64,000 nucleotides of DNA from the NCBI RefSeq assembly GCF_029227855.1, contig NZ_CP074356.1; one strand, 5' to 3'. Numbering within the stretch: the stretch's first letter is position 1; the number at the start of each line of letters is the position of its first letter. The notes below the pieces were generated by a model, which had not been told where the DNA came from, ran no database searches, and saw nothing but the letters and a program-made list of their open reading frames with translations. Both the position numbers and the translations under genes were made by a program. Below are positions 1 through 63,830 of this stretch, piece by piece. This DNA comes from Escherichia coli. GTDB lineage: Bacteria; Pseudomonadota; Gammaproteobacteria; Enterobacterales; Enterobacteriaceae.

Positions 1-1328
1 TGACGCTGGGGAGCATTCGGTTGAATGCCTGAAAGATTGAAATTGCGTTGCCATATTGCGAGCTGTTTATCTGCAAATTCTTCAGTTAGCTTGTGTTGCG
101 ATTGCAGAAGAAGAATTAAACCGTCCCATTTGTTCAAGTTAGGATACAACCGACAATATGCGCAAGCATGTTTAACTGACGGTGCGTTTTCCAGCAACTG
201 ACGTATTTCCTCGAACGTGAGCGGAACTCGACACCATACACAGATGTTAACCATAAATCGAAGCCCGGAGGCGTCCGGGTTAGCCAGTGTGGTCAGAATA
301 ATCCCTTTGACACCACCATCAGGATTGGCTTTCGCAAGAATATACATAGCGGCTAATCGCAGTGGGAATACATCCTGTAATAATCCCCATTCTGCCAGTT
401 TTAAAATATTGGCATCATGAATGGAGTCCAGCCCGTATAAAGCTGCCCGGCGCTGTGAGGGAGTATATTCAGTCGAGGTGACAACATGACGCCAGAATTG
501 CGCAACATCCATGACGTCATTAAGCATGTTTTTAGCGCGTAGACGGATCAACATATTGTTATCCAGCAGTAATGCGCCGTACAACTCCGGAGGAATTTCT
601 ATAGCTCGGTCAGTAAGGCTAAACAACGTTGCTTGTCGAATACGCGGCCAGCGGTCTTTTAACAGACGAGTTAATACCGCTTCGCTTAACGGTAATTGTT
701 GACGCAGCCAGTGGGTGACCGCCAGCATTCGTAACCCTTCGTCGGGCTGCTTGAGTATTAAAAGCAGCGAAGATTCATCATTAAAGTAGCCATATTCAAT
801 CAGCGTTTGTAATACTGCGCGGGAGAGTTTTTTATCAGGGCAAGTAAGCCAACACGTTAATTGTGGACGGCTATTTTCTGTCAATAAAAATCTAAGTATC
901 TCGTCTACAAATGCACGGTGATCGTAACGCTGGCATTGGAGAAGGTTACGTATCATGGGAAGATTAACGGCAAATGCCGCTGCATTCTTACCCTTCTTTA
1001 AATGACGTAACGCTATGGTTGCAGCAAGGCGAACCTCTTTTACCCAGTCATTAGCTGCAAGTAATAATTCTTCTATAGCTGCAACATCCTCTTTTTGTCC
1101 CAGACATTGCACGGCCTTTTCTCGTATATATCCATTGTGGTGATAGGTAAGCTGGCAAAGAACCAGAGTATTGTTGAGATCACAATCATGCGCTATATAA
1201 TTGCCTGGATCGGCTATCATCGCCTGGAGTTGTTGCTGGATAAGAAATAATTCACAGTCAACAGAATTATTCATTTCGACGTTAAACAAAACCCTGCGTG
1301 TAAATAATGTACGCAATCCTTTGAGCAT
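1..1328 (-). CDS. Hypothetical repeat-containing protein, partial (C-terminus lies beyond window start); possible HEAT/armadillo-like repeats
   Basis: Hand translation of the minus strand from ATG at 1328..1326 (MLKGLRTLFTRRVLFNVEMNNSVD...) stays open for about 442 codons to position 1; AAGGAA Shine-Dalgarno about 5 nt upstream and an in-frame TAA stop 6 codons upstream. Absent from the supplied ORF track, presumably because it has no stop inside the window. Recurrent ~30-40 aa Leu/Ala-rich units. Does not resemble K-12 YegQ, which occupies this position in K-12. Confidence 0.55.
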   Translation of the reverse strand, partial: MLKGLRTLFTRRVLFNVEMNNSVDCELFLIQQQLQAMIADPGNYIAHDCDLNNTLVLCQLTYHHNGYIREKAVQCLGQKEDVAAIEELLLAANDWVKEVRLAATIALRHLKKGKNAAAFAVNLPMIRNLLQCQRYDHRAFVDEILRFLLTENSRPQLTCWLTCPDKKLSRAVLQTLIEYGYFNDESSLLLILKQPDEGLRMLAVTHWLRQQLPLSEAVLTRLLKDRWPRIRQATLFSLTDRAIEIPPELYGALLLDNNMLIRLRAKNMLNDVMDVAQFWRHVVTSTEYTPSQRRAALYGLDSIHDANILKLAEWGLLQDVFPLRLAAMYILAKANPDGGVKGIILTTLANPDASGLRFMVNICVWCRVPLTFEEIRQLLENAPSVKHACAYCRLYPNLNKWDGLILLLQSQHKLTEEFADKQLAIWQRNFNLSGIQPNAPQR

Positions 1329-1450: not shown

Positions 1451-1783
1451 TTACGTATTGTCTTTTACCGTCTGGCTTGTGCCATTGGCTTTAACGGAGG
1501 CAATTCCGGTTTCACGAGATTGCGCGGTGGCGTACATTTGGCTGGAGCCGATAATTTGATGATTGGCGGCTTTCAGATTGAAATAGAATTTGCCGTTGCT
1601 TGCCGTTTTTTTCTCATAGCGTTCTTCTTGCGGGCTGTTGCTACGCACCGACGCGATACCCTTTTCCGCAGAGGCTTTTGAGGTATACAGCTCGCTGGTG
1701 AGGATAGTCTCACCATTGCCCGCTTTTAGCACAAACCGGAACTGATTATCACTGCTCTTACTGAGTTCAAACCAACCAGCCAT
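1451..1783 (-). CDS. yegP: UPF0339/DUF1508 family protein YegP
   Basis: Translation MAGWFELSKSSDNQFRFVLKAGNGETILTSELYTSKASAEKGIASV... matches remembered YegP (110 aa); AGGAG Shine-Dalgarno 7 nt upstream of ATG at 1783. The ORF-track 5' extension to 1822 is rejected. Confidence 0.8.
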   Translation of the reverse strand: MAGWFELSKSSDNQFRFVLKAGNGETILTSELYTSKASAEKGIASVRSNSPQEERYEKKTASNGKFYFNLKAANHQIIGSSQMYATAQSRETGIASVKANGTSQTVKDNT

Positions 1784-1962
1784 AATGACTCCTTGATTGA
1801 AATTGCGTATCGAAAACAGCATCTAAAGGTACTGTTTGCCAATTAAAGTATGAGCGATTTTCTGGTGCCTGCCAGGGCGGAGAGATCATGTCAGTTTGCT
1901 GACCATGCGTGGGATAATGTTGCCGGATCTGGTCTGAAGGCCATCTCCGGCAGGTAAAAATG

Positions 1963-2685
1963 TTAAACGATGCGGCAGGCGTCGGCTTCCCAGCGGTAAC
2001 CGACGCCGTAAACGGCACGGATAAAGGACTGTTCGGCGTCGAGAGATTCCAGCTTGCGACGCAGGTTTTTAATGTGGCTGTCGATGGTGCGGTCGGTTAC
2101 TACGCGGTAGTCGTCATAAAGATGATTGAGCAATTGCTCGCGGGAGAACACTTTTCCTGGTTCATGAGAGAGCGTTTTCAGCAGACGAAATTCCGCAGGC
2201 GTCAGGTCAAGCATTTTTCCGCGCCATGAAGCCTGAAAACGACCTTCGTCGATAATCAACGGGCTTTCAGCATCCTGTTGCTGCAACTCACGCTGCGGTT
2301 TGCAACGGCGCAAAATGGTTTTGACGCGCGCTACCACTTCCCGTGGGCTGTACGGCTTGCAGATATAATCATCTGCGCCAATTTCCAGCCCCAGCAGGCG
2401 GTCGATCTCTTCGATTTTTGCTGTCACCATCACGATCGGAATGTCAGAAAAACGACGAATTTCCCGACACAGCGTCAGGCCATCGGTGCCAGGGAGCATC
2501 AGATCCAGCAGGATCAGATCCGGTGGTGTCTGGCGCACATACGGCAGTACCTGATCGCCGTGGCTAATCAACGTTGGCGCATAGCTCGCAGCACGCAGAT
2601 AATCAATGAGTAACTGCCCCAGCTTCGGTTCATCTTCCACGATCAAAATACGCGGTGTGTTTTCGTCGATTGGTAACTCGGTCAT
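1963..2685 (-). CDS. baeR: OmpR-family response regulator BaeR
   Basis: 240 aa; receiver domain ([13 protein letters not shown]...[14 protein letters not shown]) plus winged-helix output domain; 4-nt overlap with baeS upstream. Confidence 0.95.
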
Positions 2686-4085
2686 ACTTCTCTCTGTAAA
2701 TCCCGTTCCAGCGGTAACTCTACTGTAATGCTTACCCCGCCAAAAGGCGAATGGGCAGCAATAATGCGGCCATTATGGGCTTCAACAATGTTCAGGCAAA
2801 TCGCCAGCCCCAGCCCGGAACCGCCGCTGGCGCGGTTGCGGGAGCCTTCGGCGCGATAAAAACGTTCAAACAATTTTTGTAGCTGATCGTCACTGACGCC
2901 CGGCGCGCTGTCGGCAAAGGTCAGTCGCACCGTTTTGTCGTGCTGCTCGGCAGAGATTTTCAGGCTGCCGCCGCTGTCAGTGTAGCGCAGGCTGTTTTCA
3001 AGTAAGTTATTGAATAACTGCATTAAACGGTCGCGATCGCCAAATACGGTAATACTGTCTGGCAGGGAGAATTGCAGTTTCAGGCCACGGCTGGCAAATC
3101 GTTCGCGAAATGCGCCGCCCGCTACTTCCAGCAGTGGGATCAAATCTACCGGTGCTTTTTGATAGGCGAGAGCGCCTTCATCAGACATCGACAACTGATG
3201 GAGATCGTCAACCAGTTTGGTCAGTGTACCGACCTCCGCCTGTAAAGACGCCACCGTCTCCGGCGTGAATTTACGCACGCCATCCTGAATGGCTTCCAGT
3301 TCACCGCGCAGCACCGCTAATGGCGTACGCAGTTCGTGAGAAATATCGGCCATAAAATCGCGGCGCATTTGCTGGTTTTTCTCCAGCGTGCTGGCGAGCT
3401 GGTTGAAGTCCTGCGCCAGTTTGCCCAGTTCATCTTCACTGGTGGGCGTCACGCGGGTTGTGAAATCGCCCGCCGCCAGTTTGTGCGTGCCGTCCACCAG
3501 CCGTTTGACCGGGGCCAACAGACCACGCGCCAGCAGAAAGGTGGCGAGCGCCGCGAGTAACGTTGCCAGGGCGACAATCAGCCAGCTGGTTTGCCGCTGT
3601 TGTTTATCGAAATTGATATCAGTATTGCGGGTCAGTCGCTCAACAGGGGAGGCAATCACCGCACCCACTTCCGCACCGTTGACCAGAATGGGTCGCCGTG
3701 TACCGTCAGGTGGAATCGGCGCTCGCGGACCAACCAGCACCTTGTTGTTTTGATCAACCACCCAGAACTGAGTACGCCAGCCGTGCGGCGGCATACCCGG
3801 GCCGGGTTTATCTTCCGAATTATCGTGTTCAAATGAACGCAGGATCTGAAAGACAAAGCGATCGTTGTTGCGCAGGAAGCGCCAGTTACCATGCTGCGCA
3901 TACTGCTCGCCAAGCGCATCACTTAACAGCTGTAATCGCTGTTCATTGCCGTGTTTGATGTAATCAATAAAGCCACGCTCAAAACTGATACGCACCGCCC
4001 AGTGCATACTGATCAGCAAGACAATGCAGGTGGCGAAAATCGCCAGAAACAGTTTGCCGGTAATACCAGGTCGCCAGAACTTCAT
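2682..4085 (-). CDS. baeS: Sensor histidine kinase BaeS
   Basis: 467 aa; N-terminal TM segments, H-box ([24 protein letters not shown]) and HATPase G-boxes (GGSGLGLAI). Confidence 0.95.
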
Positions 4086-5497
4086 TGCGCGCTCCTTTTT
4101 CGCCGCGAAATAGCTACATTTTGATGCGTATCGTTCGGCACTCTGGCAAAGATGAACGCCGGAAGGGCGATGATAAACGCCATGCTAAACCAGGTGTACA
4201 TAAAGACGGTTTGTGTGGTGCCGCTGTCGACGCTGACATGCTGCGAACCAAAAAGCCCCAGCAACAGCCCGGCGATGGTGACGCCGATACTCATCGACAA
4301 TTGCATAATCATCGACAGCAGGCTGTTTCCGCTGCTCGCCAGATTGTCCGGGAGATCTTTCAGCGTCAGGGTGTTCATGGAGGAGAAACGGGTCGAGTTG
4401 ACCATCCCTTGTAAAAACAGGACGAACGGCAAAACGTAGTACCAGCCCAGCAGAGCAGTGGTCATAAACAACAGGGTGACCAGCGACAGACCCAGCGTGG
4501 TCGCCACCAGTACCCGACGGTAGCCAAAGCGATTCACCACCTGTACCATAATTCGCTTCATTCCCATGCTGCCAAGCACCATCGGGATCATCATCAGTCC
4601 GGCATGAAACGGTGAGAAGCCAAGGCCAATTTGCAGGAAAACCGGTGTCATAAAGGGCAACATGCCACTGCCAATACGTCCGGCAAAGCTCCCCGCCAGG
4701 CCCAGCGAAAAGGTACGAGTGCGGAACAGTTTCAGACTGAACAGGGCGCGGTTGTTATTTCTGGCGTGCAGCAGATAAAGCACCAGTGCCACCACGCCAA
4801 CTGCGACCAGGCCAGCAATCGCCAGCGGCGATAAACCTGTACCTTTACTGCCGTCCAGTGCCAGGGTTAATACCGCCATGCCAACCGCCAGCAATAAAAA
4901 GCCGGAAAGATCAAAGCGCCGCGTCTGCATGGTGTAGTTCGGCATTAACATCAGTGTGGCGATCGCGCCAATAATCCCCACCGGAATGTTGATCAAAAAG
5001 ATCCAGTGCCACGACGCGTATTCCACCAGCAGACCGCCGAGCGCCGGACCGAGCAGCGGACCGACCTGACCGGGTAACGTGACAAAGGTCATCGCCGCCA
5101 TATATTGCTCGCGCGGTACGATTTTCATCACCGTCAACCTGCCGACCGGCACCATCATCGCGCCGCCAACGCCCTGTAACGCGCGTGCCAGCAACAGTTC
5201 GTTCAGCGTGCCGGAAAGCGCGCAAAACAGTGAACCGAGAGTAAACAGCACGATGGCGGTAAAGAAAATATTGCGCACGCCGACTTTGTCCGCCAGCCAG
5301 CCGCTGGCGGGCAGCATCACCGCCACGGTCAGTACATAAGAGACAATGACCATGTGCATATGCAACGGACTTTCCCCGAGGCTTTGCGCCATTGAGGGAA
5401 GCGCGGTGTTAACGATGGTGGTGTCCAGCGACTGCATAAAGAAGCCGAAAGCCACAATCCACAATTGCCAGCGGGTGCTGTCGGGAAGATCTGTCAT
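4082..5497 (-). CDS. mdtD: MFS transporter MdtD
   Basis: 471 aa polytopic membrane protein with MFS-type repeats; sits in the mdtABCD-baeSR operon with a 4-nt overlap with baeS. Confidence 0.95.
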
Positions 5498-8400
5498 TTA
5501 CTCGGTTACCGTTTGTTTAGGTTTACGCGAAAAACGCAGCCGCAGACGGTCGAAAAAGAGATACACCACCGGCGTGGTATACAGCGTCAGAAGCTGGCTC
5601 ATTACCAGACCGCCGACAATGGTGATCCCCAGGGGTTGGCGCAGCTCCGAGCCGTCACCGCCCGACAATACCAGCGGCAGCGCGCCAAACAGCGCCGCCA
5701 GGGTAGTCATCATAATCGGGCGAAAACGCAGCAGACAGGCCTGGAAAATAGCTTCCTGCGGCGTCAGGTTACCGTGCCGTTGGGCTTCAAGCGCAAAATC
5801 GACCATCATAATGGCGTTTTTCTTCACGATGCCGATTAATAGCATGATCCCTATCAGGGCGATTAGGCTGAACGGGGCATTGAACAGCTCCAGCGCCAAC
5901 AGCGCTCCAACGCCCGCCGAGGGCAGGGTGGAGAGAATCGTCAGCGGATGTACGTAACTCTCGTAAAGGATACCCAGCACGATATACACCGTGGCGATGG
6001 CGGCGATAATCAGGATCACCTGCGAGTTCATCGTCTCCTGGAACACCTGCGCCGTGCCGGCAAAACTACCGCGCACCGTCGAAGGCACACCAAGCTGGGT
6101 CATTGCGCGATCGATCGCCGCACTGGCGTCCGAGAGCGATTTCCCGGTCGGCAGGTTAAACGAAATGGTCGAGGCCGCCGATAATCCCTGATGATTCACC
6201 GACAGCGGAGCATTCGCCGGTTGCCATTTAGCGAAATACGACAGCGGGATCGCTTTTCCTTCGTTATTGATAACGAACATTTTTTCCAGCGCGCTGATGT
6301 CCTGGGTATAGCGCGGATCCACTTCCATCACCACTTTGTACTGGTTCATCGGCTGGTAAATGGTCGAGATTTGCCGCTGACCGAAGGCGTTATTTAACAG
6401 GCTGTTGGCGGCCTGCACGTCGATTCCCAGCCGCGCCATGGTGTCGCGGTCGTAAACCAGATTCATCTCCGCGCCGTTATCCTGCTGATCGGAGTTCACG
6501 TCCGCCAGTTCCGGCAACGTTGCCAGTTTTTTGCGGATTTTCGGCTCCCATTCGCGCAGTGCCGCCAGGTCGTCGGATAACAACGTGTACTGGTAACTGG
6601 CGTTCGACTGACGTCCGCCAACGCGAATATCCTGTACCGCCATCAGGAACAGATTCGCCCCCGGTTCTTTCGCCAGTTTTACGCGCAGACGGTCGATAAT
6701 TTGCTGCGCCGTTTCGCTGCGTTCGTCGCGTGGCTTGAGGGTGATAAACATCATCCCACTGTTCACCCGCGAACCGCCGGTAAAGCCGGTGACATTATCC
6801 ACCGCCGGATCGTCACGGATAATTTTCATAAAATCCTGCAACTTACCGCGCATCGCCTGAAACGAAATACTCTGATCCGCCTGTATCCCGCCCATCAACA
6901 CGCCGGTGTCCTGCTCCGGGAAGAAGGTTTTCGGGATCGAGATATATAGCCAGATATTCAGCGCAATGGTGCCAAGCAGCACCACGCCCACCAGACGGGT
7001 ATGATTGAGCACCCATTTCAGCGACTTGCCATAGCCTTGTTGCAGGGCTACCAACATGCGACCAAAACCACGCAGTCGCTTTTGCTCGCGCGGCTTGCTG
7101 GCTTTTAGCATCCAGCCGCACATCATCGGCGTTAGCGTCAGGGAAACCAGCAACGAAATACCAATGGCGACAGAAAGCGTCACGGCAAACTCGCGTAACA
7201 GTCTGCCCGGCAATCCGCCCATCAACAGCAGCGGCAGAAACACCGCCACCAGTGACAGACTCATCGACAGCACCGTAAAACCGACTTCGCGAGTACCTTG
7301 CAGTGCGGCCTGTAGTGGTTTTATCCCCGCTTCCAGGTGACGGGCAATGTTTTCCAGCACCACGATGGCGTCATCCACCACGAAACCAGTAGCAATAGTG
7401 AGCGCCATTAACGACAGGTTATTGAGACTGAATCCGCACAGGTACATCGCCGCAAACGTACCAATCAGCGAAACCGGCACCGCAACGGCGGGAATAATAG
7501 TGGCGCGACCCGAGCGCAGGAATAAAAACACCACCAGAATCACCAGCGCCACCGAGATAATCAGCGTTTGCTCGACTTCTTCCAGCGAGGCGCGAATGGT
7601 GGGGGAGCGATCCTGGGCAATTTGCAGATCAATCGCCGCCGGAATGGTCTCCTGCAACTCCGGTAATTTTGCCCGGATGCTGTCAACCGTCTGGATTATA
7701 TTGGCTTCCGGCAGCTTGCGGATCATCAGCAAAATAGCCGGTTTGGCGTTGGTCATCCCGGCGTTACGTACATCTTGTACAGAGTCGGTCACCGTCGCCA
7801 CATCGCCCAGACGAACCGCGCCGCCGTTGTTGTAATGAATAATCAACGGCTGATATTCAGCGGCGGTTTTCAGTTCATCGTTAGTCTGGATCTGCCAGCG
7901 GTGAGTATCATCTTCCAGCGCCCCCTGCGGTTTACGCACGTTGGCATTGCTGATGGCGGTGCGCACATCGTCCAGCGACACGCCCTGATTAAACAGCGCC
8001 TGCGGATTCAGCCCGACGCGTACGGCGGGCAGCGAGCTGCCGCCAACATCGACATCACCGACACCGTCGATTTGCGAAATCGTCGGAGCCAACTGCGTCG
8101 AGGCGAAATCGTACAGTTCACCCTGCGAATAAGTATCGGACGTCAGCGTCAGGATCATTATTGGCGCATCCGACGGGTTCGCTTTGCGATAGGTCGGACG
8201 GCTGGGCATCCCGCTAGGCAGCAAACTTTGTGCGGCGTTGATCGCCGCTTGCACATCGCGCGCTGCGCCGTTGATATCGCGGTCAAAATCAAACTGCAAA
8301 ATAATGCGCGTGCTGCCGAGCGAACTGCTGGAGGTCATTTCACTGACCCCGGCAATGCGCCCAAGCGAACGTTCCAGCGGCGTGGCAACGGAAGACGCCA

Positions 8401-8575
8401 TTGTTTCTGGTGACGCACCGGGCAGCGAGGCGCTGACCATAATCACCGGAAAATCGACCTGCGGCAGTGGGGCGACCGGCAGCATACGGAAGCCCAGTAT
8501 GCCGCACAGGGTAATGGCGACCGACAGTAAAATCGTCGCCACCGGGCGGTAAATGAAGAGGGCAAAAAACTTCAC
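5498..8575 (-). CDS. mdtC: RND multidrug efflux pump subunit MdtC
   Basis: 1025 aa; AcrB/RND-family sequence ([29 protein letters not shown]...). Confidence 0.95.
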
Positions 8576-11500
8576 TTACGCCTCCTCTTCATGGCGAGCA
8601 AAGCGACTTTTGGTCCACAATGCCAGGCGGTCGAACAGCAGATAAATCACCGGCGTGGTGAACAGCGTCAGCACCTGGCTGACAATCAGACCGCCGACCA
8701 TGCCGATACCTAACGGACGACGCAGTTCCGCGCCGACCCCGGTACTCAACATCAGCGGCAGCGCGCCAAGCAGAGCCGCCAGAGTGGTCATCAGGATCGG
8801 ACGAAAACGTAACAGACAAGCCTGGTAGATTGCCTCGCGCGGCGACATGCCTTGCTCGCGCTCAGCAGCCAGCGCGAAGTCGATCATCATGATGGCGTTC
8901 TTCTTCACGATACCGATCAGCAAAATAATGCCGATAATCGCAATCACATCCAGCTCGCTACCGGCAATCAGTAACGCCAGCAGTGCGCCGACCCCTGCGG
9001 TGGGTAGCGTCGAGAGAATGGTGATCGGGTGAATAAAGCTCTCGTACAGAATGCCGAGCACGATATACATCGCCACCACCGCCGCGACAATCAGCCAGAC
9101 AGTGCTGCCCAACGCCGACTGGAAGGCGAGGGTGCTGCCCTGGAACTGCGTGGTGATATCCACCGGCAGATTCAGCGTCTTTTCGGTGTCCATAATCGCC
9201 TGCACCGCATCGCCCAGCGAATAGTTATCCGGCACGTTAAAGGAGATGGTCGTTACCGGGAACTGATCCAGATGGTTGATGGAAAGCGGCGCAAAACGCT
9301 GCTCAATTTTGGCAATTGAGCTTAACGGCACCACTCCACCGTCGCTGCTGGTCAGGCGAATGGTATCCAGCGCCGCGAGGCCTGGGGTATTTTCGGTGTT
9401 GTGTTCCAGCACCACGCGATACTGGTTAGCCTGAGTATAAATAGTGGAAATCAGCCGCTGACCAAACGCGTTGTACAGGGCGTTATCGACATCCGCCATG
9501 CTGATCCCCAGACGGCTGGCGCTGTCGCGATCAACATTGACATACGCCACCAGCCCTTTGTCCTGCCAGTCGCTGGAGACATCAGATAGCTGTGGCAGCT
9601 GCTGGAGTTTTTCCATCAACTGTGGCACCCAGGTACTGAGCGCATCCAGTGACGTGGCCTGCAAGGTAAACTGGTACTGGGTGCGGCTGACCTGAGTATC
9701 GATGGTCAGGTCCTGCGTTGGTTGCAGGAAGAGATCGACGCCCGGCACTTTATCCACCGCCGTTTGCAGACGGGCGATGACTTTTTGCACCCGATCATCA
9801 CGTTCATCCAGCGGTTTGAGGTTGATCTGCAAACGCGCACTGTTCAGCGACGGGTTAGTGCCATCAACGCCAACAAATGAGGTCAGACTTTGCACTGCCG
9901 GATCCTGCAAAATCACGTCCGCGACCTGGCGTTGCCGCTGGGCCATATTGGCAAAGGAGCTGGATTGCGGTGCCTGCAAAGTGCCCTGAATAATGCCGTT
10001 ATCCTGTACCGGGAAGAAACCTTTCGGAATGAACACCCACAACAGCACGCTAAGCAGCAGCGTGCTGAGTGCCACGCTTAAGGTCAGCCACGGATGATTC
10101 AGCACTTTCGCCAGTCCACGACCATAGGCGGCGATTATCCTGTCGAACATTTTCTCCGAGGCTCGGGAGAAGCGATTCTGTTTACGCAGCGACTCCTGGC
10201 TGAGCATCCGCGCGCACATCATCGGCGTCAGAGTCAGCGACACCACGGCTGAGATCAAAATTGCTACCGCCAGGGTAATGGCAAACTCGCGGAACAGTCG
10301 CCCGACGATATCGCCCATAAACAGTAGCGGGATCAGCACTGCAATCAGCGAGAAGGTCAGCGAGATAATGGTAAAACCGATTTCACCTGCGCCTTTGAGC
10401 GCCGCCGCCAGCGGTTTTTCGCCTTTTTCGATATAGCGCGAAATGTTCTCGATCACCACGATGGCGTCATCGACCACGAATCCGGTGGCGATAGTTAACG
10501 CCATCAGCGTCAGGTTATTGATCGAAAAATCGAGAAACACCATGACTGCGAAGGTGCCGATTAACGACAGCGGCACTGCGACGCCAGGAATAATGGTCGC
10601 CGGAATATTGCGCAAAAACAGGTAGATAATCATGACTACCAGCGCGATAGCCATCATCAGTTCAAACTGGGTATCGTCGACCGATGCGCGGATGTTGGTG
10701 GTGCGGTCAGAAAGCACCGTCACTTTTACCGATTTCGGCAAACTCTCGGTGAGTTGTGGCAGCATCTGCCGGATGCTGTCGGCGGTGGAGATAATGTTAG
10801 CACCGGGCTGGCGCTGAACATTCATCACAATGGCCTGTTCTTTGTTCGCCCACGCGCCGAGCCAGCTGTTTTCTGCTCCTTGCTCTACGGTTGCGACATC
10901 GCCCAGACGAATCGGCGCGCCGTTCTGGTAGGCGATGATCAGCTGGCGATACTCTTCGGCGGATTGCATCTGGTCGTTCGCGGAAAGTGTGACCGCACGG
11001 GAAGGGCCGTCGAGGCTACCTTTTGCCGAGTTAACGTTAGCGCCGGTAATAGCGGTGCGCACGGTTTCGCTGGTCAGGCCGAGGGCGGCAATCGCCTGGG
11101 CGTTAAGTTTGACGCGAACAGCCGGACGCTGGCCGCCGGAAAGCGTCACCAGGCCGACGCCGGAAATCTGCGAGATTTTTTGCGCGACGCGGGTTTCCAC
11201 CATATCTTCCACTTGCGTCATCGGCATGGCGGTTGAGGTGACAGCGAGCGTCATGATTGGCGGATCTGCCGGGTTCACTTTGCTGTAAACCGGCGGGTTA
11301 GGCAGATCGCTCGGTAGCAGGTTGGTCGCAGCGTTAATCGCGGCCTGCACTTCCTGCTCGGCGACATCCAGCGGTAATGTTAGCTGGAACTGCAAAGTGA
11401 TAACTGACGCACCGCCGGAACTTTGCGACGACATCTGTTTCAGGCCGGACATCTGCCCGAACTGGCGTTCGAGCGGCGCGGTAACGGCAGAGGTCATGAC

Positions 11501-11698
11501 ATCCGGGCTGGCACCTGGGTAGAGGGTGACCACCTGAATGGTTGGATAGTCCACTTCCGGCAGCGCCGAAACGGGCAGGGCACGATAACCGATAATCCCG
11601 GCGAGTAAGATCGCCACCATCAGCAGCGTGGTGGCGACAGGACGCATAATAAACAGGCGCGATGGGCCGCCTGTGCTGCTCGGGGGTAACACCTGCAT
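8576..11698 (-). CDS. mdtB: RND multidrug efflux pump subunit MdtB
   Basis: 1040 aa; RND family, paralogous to mdtC; start overlaps the mdtA stop. Confidence 0.95.
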
Positions 11699-12945
11699 CA
11701 GGAGCGTGCTCCTTTTTTCGCGTATTCGCGGCTGGTGGCTTTCTCTTCCGGAGTGGTGGCGCTCTGGGCTTCCACTACTTCCACTTTCGCCCCTTCGGTC
11801 AGGCGATCAATGCCGTCTGTCACTACGCGGTCGCCCGCAGAAATACCTGCGCGGATCACCACTTTCTGACTGTCCTGAATGCCCGGCGTCACCAGATGTT
11901 TGCTGACCTTGTTTTCGCTATTCAGCACCCAGACAAAATGGCCTTCATTGCCCATTTGCAGGGCGGCGGTGGGGATCACCACGGCGTTTTGTTCGGTGTC
12001 GACTAACATACGCGCGTTAACAAACTGATTGGGAAACAGTGCATCATCCTGATTATTAAAGCGTGCTTTCACTTTAATCGTACCGGTAGTGGCATCGATT
12101 TGGTTATCGAGGCTTAACAGCGTGCCTTCACTTAATTTCTTCGAGTTGGTGCGATCCCAGGCTTCAACAACCAGCGGTTTTCCGGCTTTTTGCGCCTGTA
12201 CTACGGTAGCGATATCGCTTTCCGGCAGGGTAAAGACTAAATCGATAGGGTGCGTCTGGGTGATCACCACAATCCCGGTGGTATCACCACTGGAGATTTG
12301 GTTACCAACATCAACCTGCTTGAGACCAACGCGACCATCGACTGGTGCGGTGATGCGGCTCCAGTCGAGTTGCAGCTGCGCGCTGGCGACGCTTGCTTCA
12401 TCAGCCTTAATGGTGCCTTCGGTTTCACTGACCAGCGCCTGTTGGGCATCCAGCTCCTGACGAGATACGAGATTGGTTTTTACCAGTTGTTGATAACGCG
12501 CCAGGTCACGGCGGGCGTTGGCAAGCGTGGCTTTATCTTTTGCCAGTTGGCCCTGGGCTTGTGCTAATGCAACTTTGAACTGGCTTGGGTCAATTTCTGC
12601 CAGTAAATCGCCTGCTTTGACCTGCTGGCCTTCCTGGAAATGTAACGCTATCAGTTGGCCGTCCACGCGGCTGCGCACCGTAACGGTATTAGCGGCGGTA
12701 ATGGTGCCAAGCCCGGTGAGGTAACGCGGAACTGCCTGTTCTACGGCGGTCGCCGCCTGAACCGGGGCTAATGGGCCGGAACGCATACCACGGCGACCAC
12801 CCGCTGGCGATTGCTGCGCTTGTTTCGTCGCCCCTGGGGCTGCACTCCGGGAGTCATTGCGGCCTTGCCAGAACCAGAATGCGGCGATGGCGGCGATAAC
12901 CACCACGATTACGATTACCCAACGGGATTTATAACTGCCTTTCAT
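11698..12945 (-). CDS. mdtA: RND efflux membrane fusion (periplasmic adaptor) protein MdtA
   Basis: 415 aa from ATG at 12945 ([27 protein letters not shown]...), matching remembered MdtA; the ORF-track 5' extension to 13092 is rejected. Confidence 0.9.
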
Positions 12946-12998
12946 CGTTAAGAGTTTCTCTTCCTGAAACGTTTCGCGGAATGATACTAGTGTAGCCA

Positions 12999-13016
12999 GC
13001 CAATAAGGGAGAAAAA
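12999..13016 (-). promoter_or_regulatory. Candidate BaeR-binding box in the mdtA promoter
   Basis: Minus strand reads TTTTTCTCCCTTATTGGC, close to the reported BaeR consensus TTTTTCTCCATDATTGGC, about 55 bp upstream of the mdtA start. Confidence 0.5.
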
Positions 13017-13175
13017 TGGAGGAATTATGAAACACTATCGGGAATCGTCTGAATGGCGGGCACATTTGCGAGCACGCATCCAGTAATAACACATGAAACT
13101 ATTTTATCTACGCGTTAGCGATAGACTACGTGCATGGCGAAAGGAGGTAAGCCGATGATTTCAGCGGGACGCTGA

Positions 13176-13320
13176 AACGGGAAAGCCCCTCCCGAGGAAG
13201 GGGCCATAAATAAATAAGGAAAGGGTCATGATGAAGCTACTCATCATCGTGGTGCTCTTAGTCATTAGCTGGCCAGCTTACTAAGACTACCAGGGCGGGG
13301 GAAACCCCGCTCTACCCTCA
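13176..13320 (-). ncRNA. Sib-type antisense sRNA, copy 1 (antitoxin of ibs)
   Basis: Minus-strand promoter TTGACA (13355..13350), 17-bp spacer, TACTTT (13332..13327); transcript fully overlaps ibs copy 1; GC-rich hairpin (13186..13205) followed by a U-rich stretch on the minus strand. Ends are approximate. Confidence 0.5.
13228..13284 (+). CDS. Type I toxin Ibs, 18 aa hydrophobic peptide (MMKLLIIVVLLVISWPAY)
   Basis: ATGATG start followed by a hydrophobic 18-codon ORF, typical of Ibs toxins, preceded by AAGGAAAGGG. Confidence 0.75.
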   Translation: MMKLLIIVVLLVISWPAY

Positions 13321-13506
13321 CTCCTGAAAGTATGCCTTCACGATAAGATTGTCAATCTGCAGGCTTTGCAGTCTGCGATCCTGCCAGCAAATATTCTTTG
13401 CGAGACGTTACGCAATAATCACACTGGAAACTATTTTATCCGCAAGTCAGCGATAGACTGCATACAGGGCGAAAGGAGGTAAGCCGACGATTTCAGCGGG
13501 ACGCTG

Positions 13507-13648
13507 AAACGGGAAAGCCCCTCCCGAGGAAGGGGCCTTAAATAAGGAAAGGGTCATGATGAAGATACTCATCATCGTGGTGCTCTTAGTGATTAGCTAC
13601 CCAGCATACTAAGACTACCAGGGCGGGGGAAACCCCGCTCTACCCTCA
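13507..13648 (-). ncRNA. Sib-type antisense sRNA, copy 2
   Basis: Same architecture as copy 1: minus-strand TTGACA (13683..13678), 17-bp spacer, TAATTT (13660..13655); hairpin plus U-rich 3' end near 13507. Ends are approximate. Confidence 0.5.
13556..13612 (+). CDS. Type I toxin Ibs, 18 aa (MMKILIIVVLLVISYPAY)
   Basis: Paralogue of copy 1 at the same position in repeat unit 2. Confidence 0.75.
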   Translation: MMKILIIVVLLVISYPAY

Positions 13649-13835
13649 CTCCTGAAATTATGCCTTCACGATAAGATTGTCAATCTGCAGGCTTTGCAGT
13701 CTGCGATCCTGCCAGCAAATATTCTTTGCGAGTCGTTACGCAATAATCACAGAGGAAACTATTTTGTTCACGCGTTAGCGATAGACTGCATTCAGGGCGA
13801 AAGGAGGTAAGCCGACGATTTCAGCGGGACGCTGA

Positions 13836-13983
13836 AACGGGAAACCCTCTCCCGGAGAAGAGGGCTTTTAATAAGGAAAGGGTTATGATGAAGCACGTCA
13901 TCATACTGGTGATACTCTTAGTGATTAGCTTCCAGGCTTACTAAGAACACCAGGGGGAGGTGGAAACCTCTCCCTAACCCTCA
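13836..13983 (-). ncRNA. Sib-type antisense sRNA, copy 3
   Basis: Minus-strand TTGACA (14018..14013), 17-bp spacer, TAATTT (13995..13990); diverged hairpin CCCTCTCCCGGAGAAGAGGG. Ends are approximate. Confidence 0.45.
13885..13944 (+). CDS. ibsA: Type I toxin Ibs, 19 aa (MMKHVIILVILLVISFQAY), IbsA-like
   Basis: The 19-aa peptide matches the remembered IbsA sequence; it is the most diverged of the three copies. Confidence 0.7.
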   Translation: MMKHVIILVILLVISFQAY

Positions 13984-14164: not shown

Positions 14165-14824
14165 ATGAGCGAACAAATCACGTTTGCCACCAGCGATTTT
14201 GCCAGTAACCCGGAACCACGTTGCCCCTGCATTTTGCTGTTGGATGTTTCTGGTTCGATGAGTGGTAGACCTATTAATGAACTTAACGCCGGATTGGTTA
14301 CCTTTCGCGATGAGCTGCTTGCCGATTCGCTGGCCTTAAAAAGAGTGGAACTCGGTATTGTGACGTTCGGCCCGGTGCATGTGGAACAACCCTTTACCAG
14401 CGCCGCTAATTTTTTCCCGCCCATCCTGTTTGCCCAAGGCGATACACCAATGGGGGCCGCCATTACCAAAGCCCTGGATATGGTTGAGGAGCGCAAACGT
14501 GAGTATCGCGCCAATGGTATTTCCTATTATCGTCCGTGGATTTTCCTGATCACTGATGGCGCACCAACCGATGAGTGGCAGGCTGCCGCCAACAAAGTGT
14601 TTCAGGGGGAAGAAGATAAGAAGTTTGCCTTCTTTTCCATCGGTGTTCAGGGGGCGGATATGAAGACTTTGGCACAAATCAGCGTTCGTCAGCCTTTGCC
14701 ACTGCAGGGATTACAATTCCGTGAACTGTTTAGCTGGTTATCCAGTTCGCTGCGTTCGGTTTCCCGCTCCACGCCGGGAACGGAAGTTGTGCTGGAAGCG
14801 CCAAAAGGCTGGACGTCAGTGTGA
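14165..14824 (+). CDS. yegL: von Willebrand factor A (vWA, TerY-like) domain protein YegL
   Basis: 219 aa; MIDAS motif DVSGSMSG in [15 protein letters not shown]; first gene of the yegL-yegK-yegI operon. Confidence 0.9.
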
Positions 14825-15582
14825 GCTGGCGTCTGGTCTATGCATCAACCGTTGGAACGTCGCACATCAGCGCGGACTTGCCTTGCCAGGATGCCTGCCA
14901 GATGCAGGTTGCCTGGTTAAATGACCAGCAGCCATTATTGTCGGTATTTGTCGCTGATGGCGCAGGCAGTGTCTCGCAGGGTGGCGAAGGCGCGATGCTC
15001 GCCGTCAATGAAGCGATGGCTTATATGTCGCAAAAAGTGCAGGGCGGGGAATTGGGGCTTAATGATGTCCTCGCCACGGATATTGTGCTGACCATTCGTC
15101 AACGACTTTTTGCCGAGGCGGAAGCCAAAGAATTAGCGGTTCGCGATTTTGCCTGCACATTTCTGGGACTGATTTCATCGCCTGACGGCACCTTGATTAT
15201 GCAGATTGGCGATGGCGGCGTGGTGGTAGATTTGGGTCACGGTCTGCAATTGCCTCTCACGCCGATGGTGGGTGAATATGCCAACATGACGCACTTCATT
15301 ACCGACGAAGATGCCGTTTCCAGACTGGAAACTTTCACCAGCACTGGGCGTGCGCATAAAGTTGCAGCATTTACGGATGGTATTCAGCGACTGGCGTTAA
15401 ATATGCTGGATAATTCTCCGCATGTGCCTTTCTTTACCCCGTTTTTCAATGGACTGGCGTCAGCAACGCAGGAACAACTCGATTTATTACCTGAATTGTT
15501 AAAGCAGTTTTTGTCCAGCCCGGCGGTAAACGAGCGTACCGATGATGATAAAACGTTGGCACTGGCGCTGTGGTTACCATGA
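14821..15582 (+). CDS. yegK: PP2C-family Ser/Thr protein phosphatase YegK (PphC)
   Basis: 253 aa; GTG start overlapping the yegL stop (GTGA); PP2C-like metal-binding signature (FVADGAGS...); matches remembered PphC. Confidence 0.9.
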
Positions 15583-17519
15583 AACCCACTTTATATACTG
15601 CTACTGGTGAGTGCGTTACGCCAGGCCGTGAACTGGGCAAAGGTGGCGAAGGCGCGGTTTATGATATCGAGGAGTTTGTCGATAGCGTCGCTAAGATTTA
15701 TCACACGCCGCCACCCGCCTTAAAACAGGACAAACTTGCCTTTATGGCTGCGACAGCTGACGCGCAGTTGTTGAATTATGTCGCCTGGCCGCAGGCAACG
15801 CTTCACGGTGGACGAGGCGGAAAGGTTATCGGTTTTATGATGCCAAAAGTTTCTGGTAAAGAACCGATTCATATGATCTATAGCCCGGCACATCGTCGCC
15901 AGAGTTACCCTCATTGTGCGTGGGATTTTCTACTCTATGTTGCGCGCAATATTGCTTCATCTTTTGCTACGATTCACGAGCACGGGCACGTCGTGGGTGA
16001 CGTAAACCAGAATAGCTTTATGGTAGGTCGCGACAGCAAAGTGGTGTTGATTGATAGCGACTCCTTTCAGATTAACGCTAATGGCACGTTGCATTTATGC
16101 GAAGTTGGCGTGTCGCATTTTACGCCGCCAGAGCTACAAACCTTGTCGTCATTTGTCGGCTTTGAACGCACAGAAAATCACGATAATTTTGGCCTAGCGT
16201 TGCTGATTTTTCACGTCTTGTTTGGTGGGCGGCATCCTTATTCTGGTGTGCCGCTTATCTCTGATGCGGGGAATGCACTGGAGACGGATATTGCCCATTT
16301 CCGTTATGCCTACGCGTCAGATAATCAGCGACGTGGTTTAAAACCGCCGCCACGATCTATTCCGCTGTCGATGTTACCGGGCGATGTTGAAGCCATGTTT
16401 CAGCAGGCATTCACGGAAAGTGGCGTGGCAACCGGGCGTCCGACGGCAAAAGCGTGGGTAGCGGCACTTGATTCTCTACGCCAACAGTTAAAGAAATGTA
16501 CCGTTTCGGCAATGCATGTTTACCCCGGTCATTTGACTGACTGCCCGTGGTGTGCGCTGGATAATCAAGGCGTTATCTATTTTATTGATCTCGGCGAAGA
16601 GGTCATTACCACCGGCGGTGATTTTGTGCTGGCGAAAGTCTGGGCGATGGTGATGGCGTCAGTAGCACCGCCAGCATTGCAACTGCCATTACCCGATCAT
16701 TTTCAACCGACCGGCAGGCCGCTTCCTTTAGGCCTGTTACGGCGTGAATACATCATTCTGATTGAGATCGCACTGTCAGCGTTATCGCTGTTGCTTTGCG
16801 GCCTTCAGACAGAACCGCGTTATATTATTTTGGTTCCTGTGCTGGCGGCTATCTGGATTATTGGCAGCCTGACAAGCAAAGCGTACCAAGCAGAAATCCA
16901 GCAACGCCGTGAGGCGTTTAATCGTGCGAAAATGGACTATGACCATTTAGTCAGCCAGACCCAACGGTTGGGCGGGCTGGAAGGTTTTATAGCCAAACGG
17001 ACGATGCTCGAAAAAATGAAGGACGAAATTCTTGGGTTACCGGAAGAAGAAAAGCGCGATCTGGCAGCACTTCAGGACACCGCAAGGGAACGGCAGAAGC
17101 AGAAGTTTCTGGAGGGATTTTTTATTGATGTTGCCTCTATTCCCGGCGTTGGCCCTGTGCGTAAAGCGGCGTTACGGTCCTTTGGTATTGAAACGGCGGC
17201 AGACGTTACCCGACGGAGCGTTAAGCAAGTGAAAGGTTTTGGTGATCATCTGACCCAGGCGGTTATCGACTGGAAAGCGAGTTGCGAACGCCGTTTTGTT
17301 TTCAGGCCGAACGAAGCGGTAACGCCTGCAGACAGACAAGCGGTAATGGCAAAAATGGCCGCCAAACGACATCGGCTGGAATCGGCGCTGACTGTCGGCG
17401 CGACAGAGTTGCAGCGATTCCGCCTTCATGCTCCAGCACGGACCATGCCGTTGATGGAACCGTTACGTCAGGCGGCAGAAAAACTGGCTCAGGCGCAGGC
17501 AGATTTAAGCCGCTGCTGA
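15579..17519 (+). CDS. yegI: Hanks-type (eukaryotic-like) Ser/Thr protein kinase YegI
   Basis: ATG at 15579 overlaps the yegK stop (ATGA); glycine-rich loop LGKGGEGAVYD, catalytic-loop-like HVVGDVNQNS and DFG-like IDSDSF; C-terminal predicted TM segment and coiled-coil region. An alternative GTG start at 15570 is possible. Confidence 0.9.
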   Translation: MKPTLYTATGECVTPGRELGKGGEGAVYDIEEFVDSVAKIYHTPPPALKQDKLAFMAATADAQLLNYVAWPQATLHGGRGGKVIGFMMPKVSGKEPIHMIYSPAHRRQSYPHCAWDFLLYVARNIASSFATIHEHGHVVGDVNQNSFMVGRDSKVVLIDSDSFQINANGTLHLCEVGVSHFTPPELQTLSSFVGFERTENHDNFGLALLIFHVLFGGRHPYSGVPLISDAGNALETDIAHFRYAYASDNQRRGLKPPPRSIPLSMLPGDVEAMFQQAFTESGVATGRPTAKAWVAALDSLRQQLKKCTVSAMHVYPGHLTDCPWCALDNQGVIYFIDLGEEVITTGGDFVLAKVWAMVMASVAPPALQLPLPDHFQPTGRPLPLGLLRREYIILIEIALSALSLLLCGLQTEPRYIILVPVLAAIWIIGSLTSKAYQAEIQQRREAFNRAKMDYDHLVSQTQRLGGLEGFIAKRTMLEKMKDEILGLPEEEKRDLAALQDTARERQKQKFLEGFFIDVASIPGVGPVRKAALRSFGIETAADVTRRSVKQVKGFGDHLTQAVIDWKASCERRFVFRPNEAVTPADRQAVMAKMAAKRHRLESALTVGATELQRFRLHAPARTMPLMEPLRQAAEKLAQAQADLSRC

Positions 17520-53297: not shown

Positions 53298-54362
53298 TTG
53301 CACTTAAAGAAAACATATCAATTAAATTATCATACTATGCTTATTTACAATACAATATTTGTCTTTTTATCATTTCTTGCACTTTTAGATTTAAGTCATA
53401 AAAAAAATTTGTTATTTTTTTTATTTCCTTGTTTTATATTACTACTGTTAACTGCTATTCGTGGTAATGGAGGAGATGATTTTTATGTGTATGAAAAATA
53501 TTTTAACGCTCTTCCTAATGAAATTTTTAACTATGGATATGGTTATTATAGTTTAAATATGTTTGTTAAAAATTTTGGAGAGTATCCTTTTTTTATTATC
53601 ATTTCATCAATAATATGCATAACTCTTCAGGCAATTTTTATTTATCGTGAGACTGAAAAACCAACTCTGGTTTTGTTTTTATTTTATTCAACTAGCTTTT
53701 TATGGTTGGATTTTATTTTAATTAGGCAGTCAATTTCCGTTGGTTTTTTTATTTTGGCAATATCATTTTTCAAAAATAATAAAAAAATTTTTGCCTGTCT
53801 GTTTTTGATTCTATCTTCATTATTTCATGAGACCGCTATTTTTGCTGGAGTAGTTTTTTATATTTTATACAGAGCCGAGAAGGCAGGTTTTCTTTTTACA
53901 ATTGGCTCGGTATTAATTATTGCACCATTTTTATCTGATATAATCACTATCATAAATGATATGACGATAAAAAATAATAATATAACTCTCTATCTGGAGC
54001 AGCGTACCTTACCAAGCATTGCAAATGTAATTGAGTTAACAATAGCATTTGTTGCATTTTATATAATTAATAAAAATTCCGTGTTTAGAGAGAGTAATGA
54101 GTATAAAATATATAAAAGTATACTATATTCTTCACTATGCATACTATTATTGTCTTATACAATCCCATCATTGGCTAGATTCCTAGAATTTTTTCGTTTT
54201 TTTTACTTCATTTTAGTAGTTAGAATGCTAATGCAATTTAATGTGAGAAGTAGATATCTTTTTTTTGTAATTATACTAGCGTACTGTTTTATGAGACTTA
54301 ATAGCTTCATAAATCAATTTGATTCTGGTTTTGATTATATTTATAATGGAAAAATACTGTGA
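53298..54362 (+). CDS. wzy: Polytopic membrane protein, candidate O-antigen polymerase Wzy (EpsG-like)
   Basis: 354 aa, very hydrophobic with multiple predicted TM segments, AT-rich codon usage; first gene after galF. Assignment as Wzy rather than Wzx is a judgement from size and composition only. Confidence 0.5.
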   Translation: MHLKKTYQLNYHTMLIYNTIFVFLSFLALLDLSHKKNLLFFLFPCFILLLLTAIRGNGGDDFYVYEKYFNALPNEIFNYGYGYYSLNMFVKNFGEYPFFIIISSIICITLQAIFIYRETEKPTLVLFLFYSTSFLWLDFILIRQSISVGFFILAISFFKNNKKIFACLFLILSSLFHETAIFAGVVFYILYRAEKAGFLFTIGSVLIIAPFLSDIITIINDMTIKNNNITLYLEQRTLPSIANVIELTIAFVAFYIINKNSVFRESNEYKIYKSILYSSLCILLLSYTIPSLARFLEFFRFFYFILVVRMLMQFNVRSRYLFFVIILAYCFMRLNSFINQFDSGFDYIYNGKIL

Positions 54363-57819: not shown

Positions 57820-58010
57820 TTTATATTTTAGGATAATTAACTATTTAAATTAGAATCATTTGAGCAAACTTAGGTAACTCTATATAATACACAGCATTGC
57901 AAATGAGTAACATATTGGAATAGCCATTCAATGGTAATATTACAAATTGCTTTAATAATAATGGATCATTTAGCTATGGTGCAATATTTTCTTCTTGCGG
58001 AATTTTACCC

Positions 58011-59129: not shown

Positions 59130-59159
59130 TATATAGATTAACATCTACCGGAGTGTTTT

Positions 59160-60179: not shown

Positions 60180-60297
60180 ATGCTCAATGGTATTTTTGTC
60201 AATCTTAAAAATTATCGATTTTATGTATCCTGAGTTAACATAGCATCTACATTGACCTGAGTTATGTTTCGCAGTATCACCCTGACAGGAGTAAACA

Positions 60298-61704: not shown

Positions 61705-61730
61705 TCTGATTTAACCAACAATAAATTGAG

Positions 61731-61760
61731 GCCCGGCGTATATTACGCCGGGCTTTTTTG
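61731..61760 (+). terminator. Rho-independent terminator of gnd
   Basis: GCCCGGCGTATATTACGCCGGGC hairpin followed by TTTTTTG. Confidence 0.75.
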
Positions 61761-61764
61761 TGCA

Positions 61765-62472: not shown

Positions 62473-62654
62473 TACCAATTATCTTATAGACTAAATTTCA
62501 CTGCTTAATATTAACTTAATAAATATCAGCTATTCTTATAAAGAAATTCTGAATTGTTTTTCGTTGCGTTGACCATCCAACAACGTAGCGTTAAAACTTT
62601 TAGCTCTTATCAGGATGCTAAAAACATCATGATTCACAGTTAAGTTAATTCTGA

Positions 62655-63830
<1,176 letters not shown>

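Follow-up and report, generated by a model that had tools for sequence, protein, structure and literature searches.

Tight gene junctions and BaeR-dependent transcriptional feedback in the mdtABCD-baeSR operon of Escherichia coli

The minus strand of the 64,000-nucleotide window, the whole stretch of E. coli DNA analysed here, carries between positions 1963 and 12945 the canonical mdtABCD-baeSR efflux-pump operon, intact and in its reference geometry. Six co-directional genes follow one another in the order mdtA, mdtB, mdtC, mdtD, baeS and baeR, each supported by its open reading frame and the RefSeq annotation, and all six products score above their NCBIfam equivalog or subfamily cut-offs. 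The pump is encoded by mdtA (11698..12945), which starts with ATG and specifies a periplasmic adaptor subunit of 415 aa (MdtA/MuxA equivalog, 721 bits versus a cut-off of 391), and by two RND permease subunit genes, mdtB (8576..11698; 1040 aa; MdtB/MuxB, 2243 versus 1584 bits) and mdtC (5498..8575; 1025 aa, GTG start; MdtC, 2212 versus 1774 bits). These are followed by mdtD, also called iceT (4082..5497), for a 471-aa MFS transporter (MdtD, 966 versus 426 bits), baeS (2682..4085) for a 467-aa sensor histidine kinase (BaeS, 932 versus 603 bits) and baeR (1963..2685) for a 240-aa OmpR-family response regulator (BaeR, 450 versus 380 bits). Both ends of the interval are exact: the baeR stop codon finishes at position 1963, and the start codon of mdtA has its A at 12945. 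A longer mdtA frame opening at a GTG at 13092 was rejected; it would cross the BaeR box and the promoter, and it appears in neither the RefSeq nor the K-12 annotation.

The operon is 100% identical to that of RefSeq E. coli NZ_AP045174.1 and is present in 5419 of the 5426 complete genomes of this species. Compared with K-12 it has the same length (10,983 nt) and 96.95% nucleotide identity, with 335 point substitutions and no indels, and the junctions together with 15 nt on either side are unchanged. The gene identities and order given by an earlier, sequence-only reading of this DNA are thus borne out by the RefSeq annotation, the NCBIfam scores and the identity to K-12, and the alignment to the reference operon that it had proposed as a check returns the same geometry without indels. 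Of its five junction descriptions, four hold, namely the abutting mdtB/mdtC and mdtC/mdtD pairs and the ATGA overlaps of mdtD/baeS and baeS/baeR; mdtA and mdtB, which it had also joined by ATGA, share TGATG with a 1-nt overlap.

More specifically, the mdtA/mdtB junction (11696..11700, minus strand, as are all features below) reads ...TCC TGA TG CAG, with an AGGAG Shine-Dalgarno (SD) sequence 10 nt upstream of the ATG. At mdtB/mdtC (8573..8578), TAA is directly followed by GTG in the same reading frame, with a 0-nt gap, and is preceded by a GAGGAGG SD, while at mdtC/mdtD (5495..5500) TAA is directly followed by ATG, again with a 0-nt gap, and no SD is recognisable. Both remaining junctions are 4-nt ATGA overlaps, mdtD/baeS (4082..4085) with an AGGAG SD 6 nt upstream and baeS/baeR (2682..2685) with a weak purine-rich SD (AGAGAGAAG). 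Due to this series of -1, 0, 0, -4 and -4 nt, there is no space for promoters or terminators at the gene boundaries.

Five consecutive junctions of -4, -1 or 0 nt are above chance. Elsewhere in the window such distances occur in 7 of 40 same-strand neighbour pairs, with a longest run of two. The chance of five in a row is 0.175^5 = 1.6e-4 at this in-window rate and 7e-4 at the published genome-wide fraction of 707 of 2987 pairs (-8 to +6 nt), both values overstating the rarity because they assume independent junctions, which is untrue inside operons. The same spacing series is listed in a published tabulation of intergenic distances in E. coli, so that the junction distances already stand in a published supplement and are nothing new. 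The operon itself, its BaeR-dependent autoregulation and the prevalence of -4 and -1 overlaps are likewise known at textbook level.

The predicted strength of the SD sites varies strongly along the operon. SD energies are strong for mdtB (-7.9 kcal/mol), mdtC (-12.0 kcal/mol) and baeS (-7.9 kcal/mol), and weak for mdtA (-3.8 kcal/mol), mdtD (-3.1 kcal/mol) and baeR (-4.1 kcal/mol). The mdtC site is the strongest of the operon and lies in the top 0.1% of operon positions, whereas that of mdtD is no better than 39% of random operon positions and is weak also in all six other Enterobacteriaceae loci. The baeR site is moderate in several other genera. For mdtB, mdtC and baeS, this strong SD lies within the 3' end of the upstream gene, a position at which mdtD and baeR have weak matches.

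Upstream of mdtA, 54 nt before its ATG, lies a BaeR box, TTTTTCTCCCTTATTGGC (12999..13016), which is identical in K-12 and differs at one position from the published consensus TTTTTCTCCATDATTGGC (quoted in PMC3915751). It is the sole match with up to three mismatches in the 64 kb, where 0.15 would be expected. Among the sampled relatives, the published 18-nt box at up to three mismatches has no match outside Escherichia. The part of the mdtA upstream region that is conserved across genera, TTCCTCCATTTTT (13012..13024), overlaps the 5' end of the BaeR box and, by inspection, is shifted in the 5' direction relative to it. Exactly, or with one T-for-C change, it precedes mdtA at -78 to -169 in every one of the 11 Enterobacterales loci, and it may represent a BaeR half-site. 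A putative -10 hexamer of the BaeR-dependent mdtA promoter, TACACT (12989..12994), is suggested by where it lies with respect to the BaeR box and by a conserved ACTAAA/CTACA about 30 nt past the motif in other genera; a scan for consensus promoters did not call it.

That the six genes form one transcript from the mdtA promoter is taken from the literature, to which our analysis adds the BaeR box and the uninterrupted gene chain. Just past the baeR stop codon, a stable hairpin (1921..1952) without a U-tract has a folding energy of -25.2 kcal/mol (z = -2.5) and may possibly form a weak or non-canonical operon end; between baeR and yegP no terminator-like match was found on the minus strand. Inside genes there are 20 terminator-like matches on both strands, not clearly above the shuffle expectation of 13.2 +/- 3.1. 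A terminator-like hairpin in the 3' end of mdtC (5582-5561, then CUCUUUUUCG) was not taken as functional, lying in a translated region with a fold z of -0.64.

To place the junctions in an evolutionary context, about 80 related loci were compared, including 11 from Enterobacterales and six Enterobacteriaceae loci besides E. coli. The mdtA/mdtB spacing is -1 in all 11 Enterobacterales loci, each with an identical 'cctgATG', and -4 in 28 other proteobacterial loci. Across about 75 loci, the mdtB/mdtC spacing is -4 in 43, -1 in 7 and 0 in 6, falls within -4 to +4 in 60, and stays tight in the majority of proteobacterial relatives, at protein identities as low as 54%. The mdtC/mdtD and mdtD/baeS junctions are tight only within Enterobacteriaceae, among the six loci besides E. 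coli, and even between close genera their spacing switches among -4, -1, 0 and +1. The baeS/baeR junction is tight within Enterobacteriaceae, and a -4 spacing is found also in Acerihabitans and Providencia. As judged from these loci, the tight junctions are ancient for the pump subunits and lineage-specific in the regulator part, and only Enterobacteriaceae in the narrow sense show the overlap chain without a break.

Structures around the junctions were assessed by comparison with shuffled sequences. A candidate SD-masking hairpin at mdtA/mdtB (AGGAG-CACG-CUCCU, 11700-11713) was rejected (local fold z = -0.14 versus dinucleotide shuffles), and in each of 12 species the unpaired probability of this initiation region lies among the values of the shuffles. 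At the mdtB/mdtC junction, which a candidate stem of GAGGAGG with CCUCUUC encloses, pairing of the initiation region exceeds that of shuffles in 9 of 12 species (fraction 0.03-0.10), which are related to one another. Covariation in this stem is limited to a single pair changed on both sides, in two sequences only, with a score no better than that of slid controls.

Taken together, we consider it likely that this is a canonical operon with one BaeR-dependent promoter and transcriptional feedback, in which the overlaps tune relative protein output. Transcription would start at the single promoter upstream of mdtA, where the BaeR box would overlap the -35 region, and read-through of all six genes would allow phosphorylated BaeR to raise its own mRNA, the shared transcript thereby constituting the positive feedback. 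The positive feedback of the operon by BaeR is real: ChIP-exo detects BaeR as a peak upstream of mdtA, baeS is listed as about 10-fold up on BaeR amplification in a review on response regulators that regulate themselves, and BaeR is reported to be 1.6-fold up with indole. What closes the loop is transcription of baeSR from the mdtA promoter, which BaeR activates; it is a matter of co-transcription and not of co-translation. The sequence-only reading was right that a positive feedback exists, as the BaeR box, the ChIP-exo peak and the rise of baeS indicate, but its derivation from the start/stop overlaps does not follow, since relatives with gaps of 7-258 nt keep baeSR downstream. The overlaps would adjust relative protein output; they would not create the feedback, which is transcriptional and should not be credited to them.

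All five junctions are co-directional and lie inside the stop-to-start range of about -8 to +6 nt that is associated with reinitiation, and by analogy with other E. coli pairs they would permit efficient termination and reinitiation. Published reinitiation losses are 5-70% at a gap of +2 nt and 80-100% at +38 nt, of the five E. coli ATGA pairs that have been tested, four show coupling, and the published role of the SD in coupling ranges from essential to absent. On this basis, the mdt/bae junctions may plausibly be translationally coupled, especially that of the SD-poor mdtD, which, having no usable SD, is probably the gene most reliant on ribosomes coming from mdtC. MdtB and MdtC work as a B2C trimer, and coupled translation of MdtA, MdtB and MdtC would suit an MdtA-MdtB2C complex that needs fixed subunit ratios; the ancient tight spacing of the pump subunits may fit selection where such ratios matter. 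Subunits of heteromeric complexes are overrepresented 4.5-fold among tight pairs. For baeS, with its strong SD, and baeR, with its weak one, reinitiation and fresh initiation could both contribute. A literature search found no direct experiment on coupling at any of the five mdt/bae junctions, and a text search for BaeS, BaeR and MdtA-D copy numbers gave nothing usable. Several points count against this preferred explanation: mdtB, mdtC and baeS could also be initiated independently from their strong SDs, the predicted SD-masking structures at mdtA/mdtB and mdtB/mdtC are not supported, and strict reinitiation in an operon where baeS precedes baeR could not yield the excess of response regulator over kinase found in most E. 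coli systems.

The claim that the genes form 'one translational unit' goes further than these data; it is inference, bioBF has an ATGA overlap and is uncoupled, and mdtB, mdtC and baeS carry strong SDs of their own. In its strict form, all six genes would be coupled, BaeS and BaeR would come only from ribosomes that have passed through the upstream genes, and co-translation would give the feedback. The run of five junctions within -4 to 0 nt, the weak mdtD and baeR SDs in E. coli and the coupling of four of five other ATGA pairs speak for such a chain, yet we regard it as very unlikely: co-transcription from the BaeR-box promoter suffices for the feedback, mdtABC-baeSR is kept together in relatives with 7-258 nt gaps at which reinitiation should mostly vanish, baeS has its strong SD and baeR a moderate one in several genera, and bioBF demonstrates that ATGA does not guarantee coupling. 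A strict chain furthermore predicts no more BaeR than BaeS, contrary to the usual situation, as response regulators outnumber their kinases in most E. coli systems. At the opposite extreme, the overlaps might be by-products of genome compaction and of the easy origin of ATGA and TGATG, with independent initiation of each gene and no functional coupling. This would agree with -4 and -1 being the commonest spacings genome-wide, with the switching at mdtC/mdtD and mdtD/baeS among close genera, with the three strong SDs and with the unsupported SD-masking structures at mdtA/mdtB and mdtB/mdtC. It is nevertheless unlikely in view of the invariant cctgATG in 11 of 11 Enterobacterales, the tight mdtB/mdtC junction in most proteobacterial relatives, an mdtD without an SD fit for independent initiation in all six other Enterobacteriaceae loci, and the enrichment of tight pairs among complex subunits, which argues for selection.

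A further alternative concerns transcription: baeSR, or baeR alone, might also be expressed from one or more internal promoters in mdtC, mdtD or baeS, giving basal BaeSR independent of the mdtA promoter and a loop that is only partly closed. In coding-strand orientation, promoter-like hexamer pairs occur within mdtD (4575-4548) and within baeS (2799-2772, 87 nt upstream of baeR), the reported induction of baeS is modest at about 10-fold, and the 114-258 nt before mdtD in Yersinia and Brenneria would leave room for a promoter. The six promoter-like matches are, however, fewer than the shuffle expectation of 7.6 +/- 2.5, a genomic SELEX list of constitutive promoters has only one past baeR, for yegP, and our literature search found no report of an internal promoter. 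We rate this alternative as somewhat unlikely, and it is compatible with the preferred explanation of a single BaeR-dependent promoter.

Within Enterobacteriaceae in the narrow sense, the regulator genes could even be translationally slaved to the pump genes, so that ribosome flux through about 9 kb of upstream open reading frames would set BaeS and BaeR output and the feedback gain. This idea derives from an mdtD without SD that abuts mdtC, a kinase gene that precedes the regulator gene, and a baeR that overlaps baeS and has a weak SD in E. coli, and we hold it to be highly doubtful. If true, BaeR would not exceed BaeS, an unusual two-component stoichiometry that would not be common to the gapped Yersinia, Brenneria and Photorhabdus. 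The degree to which BaeS and BaeR depend on upstream translation would affect quantitative models of the envelope-stress and drug-efflux circuit; otherwise the locus has little significance beyond correct annotation.

The closest known system is the K-12 mdtABCD-baeSR operon (b2074-b2079; formerly yegMNOB-baeSR), which has the same six genes, order, lengths, junction geometry and BaeR box sequence. Its flanks differ, with two Ibs toxin genes upstream in K-12 versus three here, and trhP beyond yegP in K-12 versus a HEAT-repeat gene here. In Yersinia, Brenneria, Providencia and Photorhabdus, mdtD, baeS or baeR is separated from the preceding gene by gaps of 7-258 nt, those of 114-258 nt in Yersinia and Brenneria lying before mdtD, and mdtD is missing from the Providencia, Y. 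aldovae and Photorhabdus loci. Despite these gaps, baeSR still follows mdtABC in Yersinia, Brenneria and Photorhabdus, as it does in E. coli. Yersinia, Brenneria and Providencia also share with E. coli the TTCCTCCATTTTT element upstream of mdtA; Photorhabdus lies outside the sampled loci, and its arrangement was taken from PMC6375597.

MdtABC/MuxABC-type RND loci of Pseudomonas, Burkholderiales and others have the same order, an adaptor followed by two paralogous RND subunits, with tight junctions. Among about 70 such loci outside Enterobacterales, none carries mdtD or baeSR on the same strand in the 10 kb that follow, and their typical overlap is ATGA or GTGA, compared with TGATG and TAA/GTG in the E. 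coli group. The coupled E. coli pairs hyfHI, astDB, ydbH-ynbE as well as menDH (Huber et al. 2019, 2023) are likewise co-directional, spaced by -4 or -1 nt, and have an SD within the 3' end of the upstream gene. Unlike these pairs, two of the mdt/bae junctions are 0-nt abutments, mdtD has no SD, and coupling in the mdt/bae operon is putative.

The mdtABCD-baeSR operon occupies window positions 1963-12945 on the minus strand, exactly the bounds that the sequence-only reading had assigned to it. It comprises baeR (1963-2685), baeS (2682-4085), mdtD (4082-5497), mdtC (5498-8575, beginning with GTG), mdtB (8576-11698), and mdtA (11698-12945), each placed by coordinates, RefSeq annotation, and sequence. 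All six proteins (MdtA, MdtB, MdtC, MdtD, BaeS, and BaeR) pass the curated NCBIfam cut-offs, and a check of the operon for pseudogenes and sequence errors found none. Its length of 10,983 nt equals that of K-12, with 335 substitutions and 0 indels (96.95% identity), and alignment to this reference showed all junctions to be identical over at least 15 nt on either side. The operon is thus the K-12 operon itself and not a variant. The surrounding region (1500-13500) matches E. coli JNEC-KY178 (NZ_AP045174.1) at 100% identity, and 5419 of the 5426 complete genomes of this species contain it.

On the coding strand, mdtB/mdtC (TAA followed directly by GTG) and mdtC/mdtD (TAA followed directly by ATG) abut with a spacing of 0, while mdtD/baeS and baeS/baeR each share an ATGA with a 4-nt overlap, all four as previously described. 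The mdtA/mdtB junction, which had been called ATGA, instead reads TCC-TGA-TG-CAG (TGATG), a 1-nt overlap. K-12 annotation gives matching distances, and these are already known, being tabulated in the supplement of Huber et al. 2023 as -1, 0, 0, -4, and -4, followed by +190 to yegP. Single TAA codons (8573-8578 and 5495-5500) alone divide mdtB, mdtC, and mdtD, which otherwise form one continuous reading frame.

Spacings of -4, -1, or 0 are found at 5/5 operon junctions versus 7/40 other same-strand neighbour pairs in the window, where the longest such run spans two junctions (yegL-pphC-yegI). The probability of five tight junctions by chance is 1.6e-4 at the window rate, or 7e-4 at the published genome-wide rate (707 of 2,987 E. 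coli pairs spaced -8 to +6), although both figures take junctions as independent and exaggerate the rarity because tight pairs cluster in operons. The chain is clearly non-random. Consecutive overlaps recur in the window only once, in yegL (a vWA protein), pphC (a Ser/Thr phosphatase), and yegI (a protein kinase), which lie at 14165-17519 on the plus strand and are joined by two 4-nt overlaps.

To place these junctions among relatives, MdtC was scanned in one genome per species, yielding 80 loci; orthologues were found by BLASTP of stop-to-stop ORFs, with starts set from alignments with their E. coli counterparts. Downstream baeSR is limited to 11 Enterobacterales loci, and mdtABC stands alone in approximately 70 loci, which belong to other Proteobacteria, Acidobacteria, and Verrucomicrobia, among others. 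The mdtA/mdtB junction is 'cctgATG' (-1) in 11/11 Enterobacterales loci and ATGA or GTGA (-4) in 28 loci outside this order. At mdtB/mdtC, 43 loci have a spacing of -4, 7 have -1, and 6 have 0, the last form being restricted to E. coli-like Enterobacteriaceae. Since Yersinia, Brenneria, and most distant relatives carry a GTGA or ATGA overlap here, the 0-nt state of the E. coli group is derived. Tight junctions (-4, -1, 0, or +1) at mdtD, baeS, and baeR occur only in Escherichia, Citrobacter, three 'Enterobacter' species, and Superficieibacter. Elsewhere, gaps of 67-258 nt precede mdtD (Yersinia, Brenneria, and Acerihabitans), and in Yersinia and Brenneria 7-16 nt precede baeS (83 nt in Y. aldovae) and 8-24 nt precede baeR; Acerihabitans has -1 at baeS and -4 at baeR. 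Providencia and Y. aldovae lack mdtD, and 121 nt have been reported between mdtC and baeS in Photorhabdus (PMC6375597). Because the pump junctions are tight across relatives and the regulator junctions only in Enterobacteriaceae, the former are old and widely retained, whereas the unbroken chain through the regulator is a narrower, derived feature.

All five spacings lie within the range of efficient E. coli reinitiation, which drops by 5-70% when the gap is +2 nt and by 80-100% when it is +38 nt. Overlap-mediated coupling is a general phenomenon that has already been reviewed; 4/5 tested ATGA pairs were coupled, bioBF being the uncoupled one. Subunits of heteromeric complexes are 4.5-fold enriched among tight pairs, and MdtBC works as a B2C trimer, which the deep conservation of mdtA/mdtB and mdtB/mdtC fits. 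A literature search for experiments on these five junctions found none; coupling at them is plausible. To join all six genes into 'one translational unit', as had been proposed, goes too far. Strong internal Shine-Dalgarno (SD) sequences permit fresh initiation: that of mdtC (-12.0 kcal/mol) ranks in the top 0.1% of operon positions and those of mdtB and baeS (-7.9 kcal/mol each) in the top 2.5%. Ribosome profiling further shows that most E. coli response regulators exceed their kinases in number, a ratio that strict reinitiation could not yield with the kinase gene first. Two candidate SD-masking RNA structures, of a kind that would enforce coupling, were tested: a hairpin at mdtA/mdtB (AGGAG-CACG-CUCCU) is at best equal to shuffles, and a stem around mdtB/mdtC (GAGGAGG/CCUCUUC) pairs somewhat above shuffles in 9/12 species with covariation absent. 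Promoter-like sites inside mdtD and baeS are no more frequent than chance.

The SDs of baeR (-4.1 kcal/mol), mdtA (-3.8 kcal/mol), and mdtD (-3.1 kcal/mol) do not stand above 27%, 29%, and 39% of random operon positions, respectively. As its SD is also poor in 6/6 other Enterobacteriaceae loci, mdtD is the gene most likely to depend on ribosomes passed on by mdtC. By the same measure, baeS can presumably also initiate independently, and baeR would be intermediate between the two. The mdtA SD (12920-12950) is weak throughout 12 genomes, including the 11 Enterobacterales relatives (-2.2 to -5.3 kcal/mol), in contrast to the strong SDs of the internal genes mdtB and mdtC; the number of ribosomes entering the operon may be held down.

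Positions 12999-13016, 54 nt 5' of the mdtA ATG, carry a BaeR box, TTTTTCTCCCTTATTGGC, which has one mismatch to the published consensus (PMC3915751) and is the sole match in 64 kb. BaeR binding upstream of mdtA has been detected by ChIP-exo, baeS rises ~10-fold upon BaeR amplification, and the literature handles the six genes as a single operon, whose junctions leave no space for promoters or terminators. Positive feedback would thus arise from co-transcription. The feedback that had been proposed is real, and autoregulation is already listed in tables of auto-activating response regulators, but the overlaps are not its cause and would not be needed for it, because gapped relatives retain the regulator-after-pump arrangement. 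The element conserved across genera 5' of mdtA is TTCCTCCATTTTT (13012-13024, minus strand), which overlaps the published 18-nt box at its 5' end only; retention of the 3' part (CTCCCTTATTGGC) is confined to Escherichia and Citrobacter, and outside Escherichia a search at up to 3 mismatches did not find the 18-mer.

Between baeR and yegP (1784-1962, minus strand), no canonical intrinsic terminator was found. This spacer holds a stable hairpin without a U-tract (1921-1952, minus strand) and the published constitutive yegP promoter (CTGGCA-17-CATACT), and the first good terminator lies 3' of yegP (~1417-1443); transcription may possibly continue from the operon into yegP. Farther away, an O23-type O-antigen cluster (53337-63830, plus strand; wzy, wzx, and glycosyltransferases) carries an IS200C transposase gene inserted between gndA and ugd (~61903-62361). 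Both flanks of the operon depart from K-12. Between mdtA and yegL (13228-13944, plus strand) lie three Ibs-family type I toxin genes, ~330 nt apart, compared with two in K-12 (ibsA and ibsB, with antisense RNAs sibA and sibB), and in matches from other strains (H2-H4) this stretch differs by ~324 nt. Past yegP, a gene for a HEAT-repeat-domain protein (1-1328, minus strand), possibly a strain-specific insertion or replacement, stands where K-12 has trhP (yegQ).
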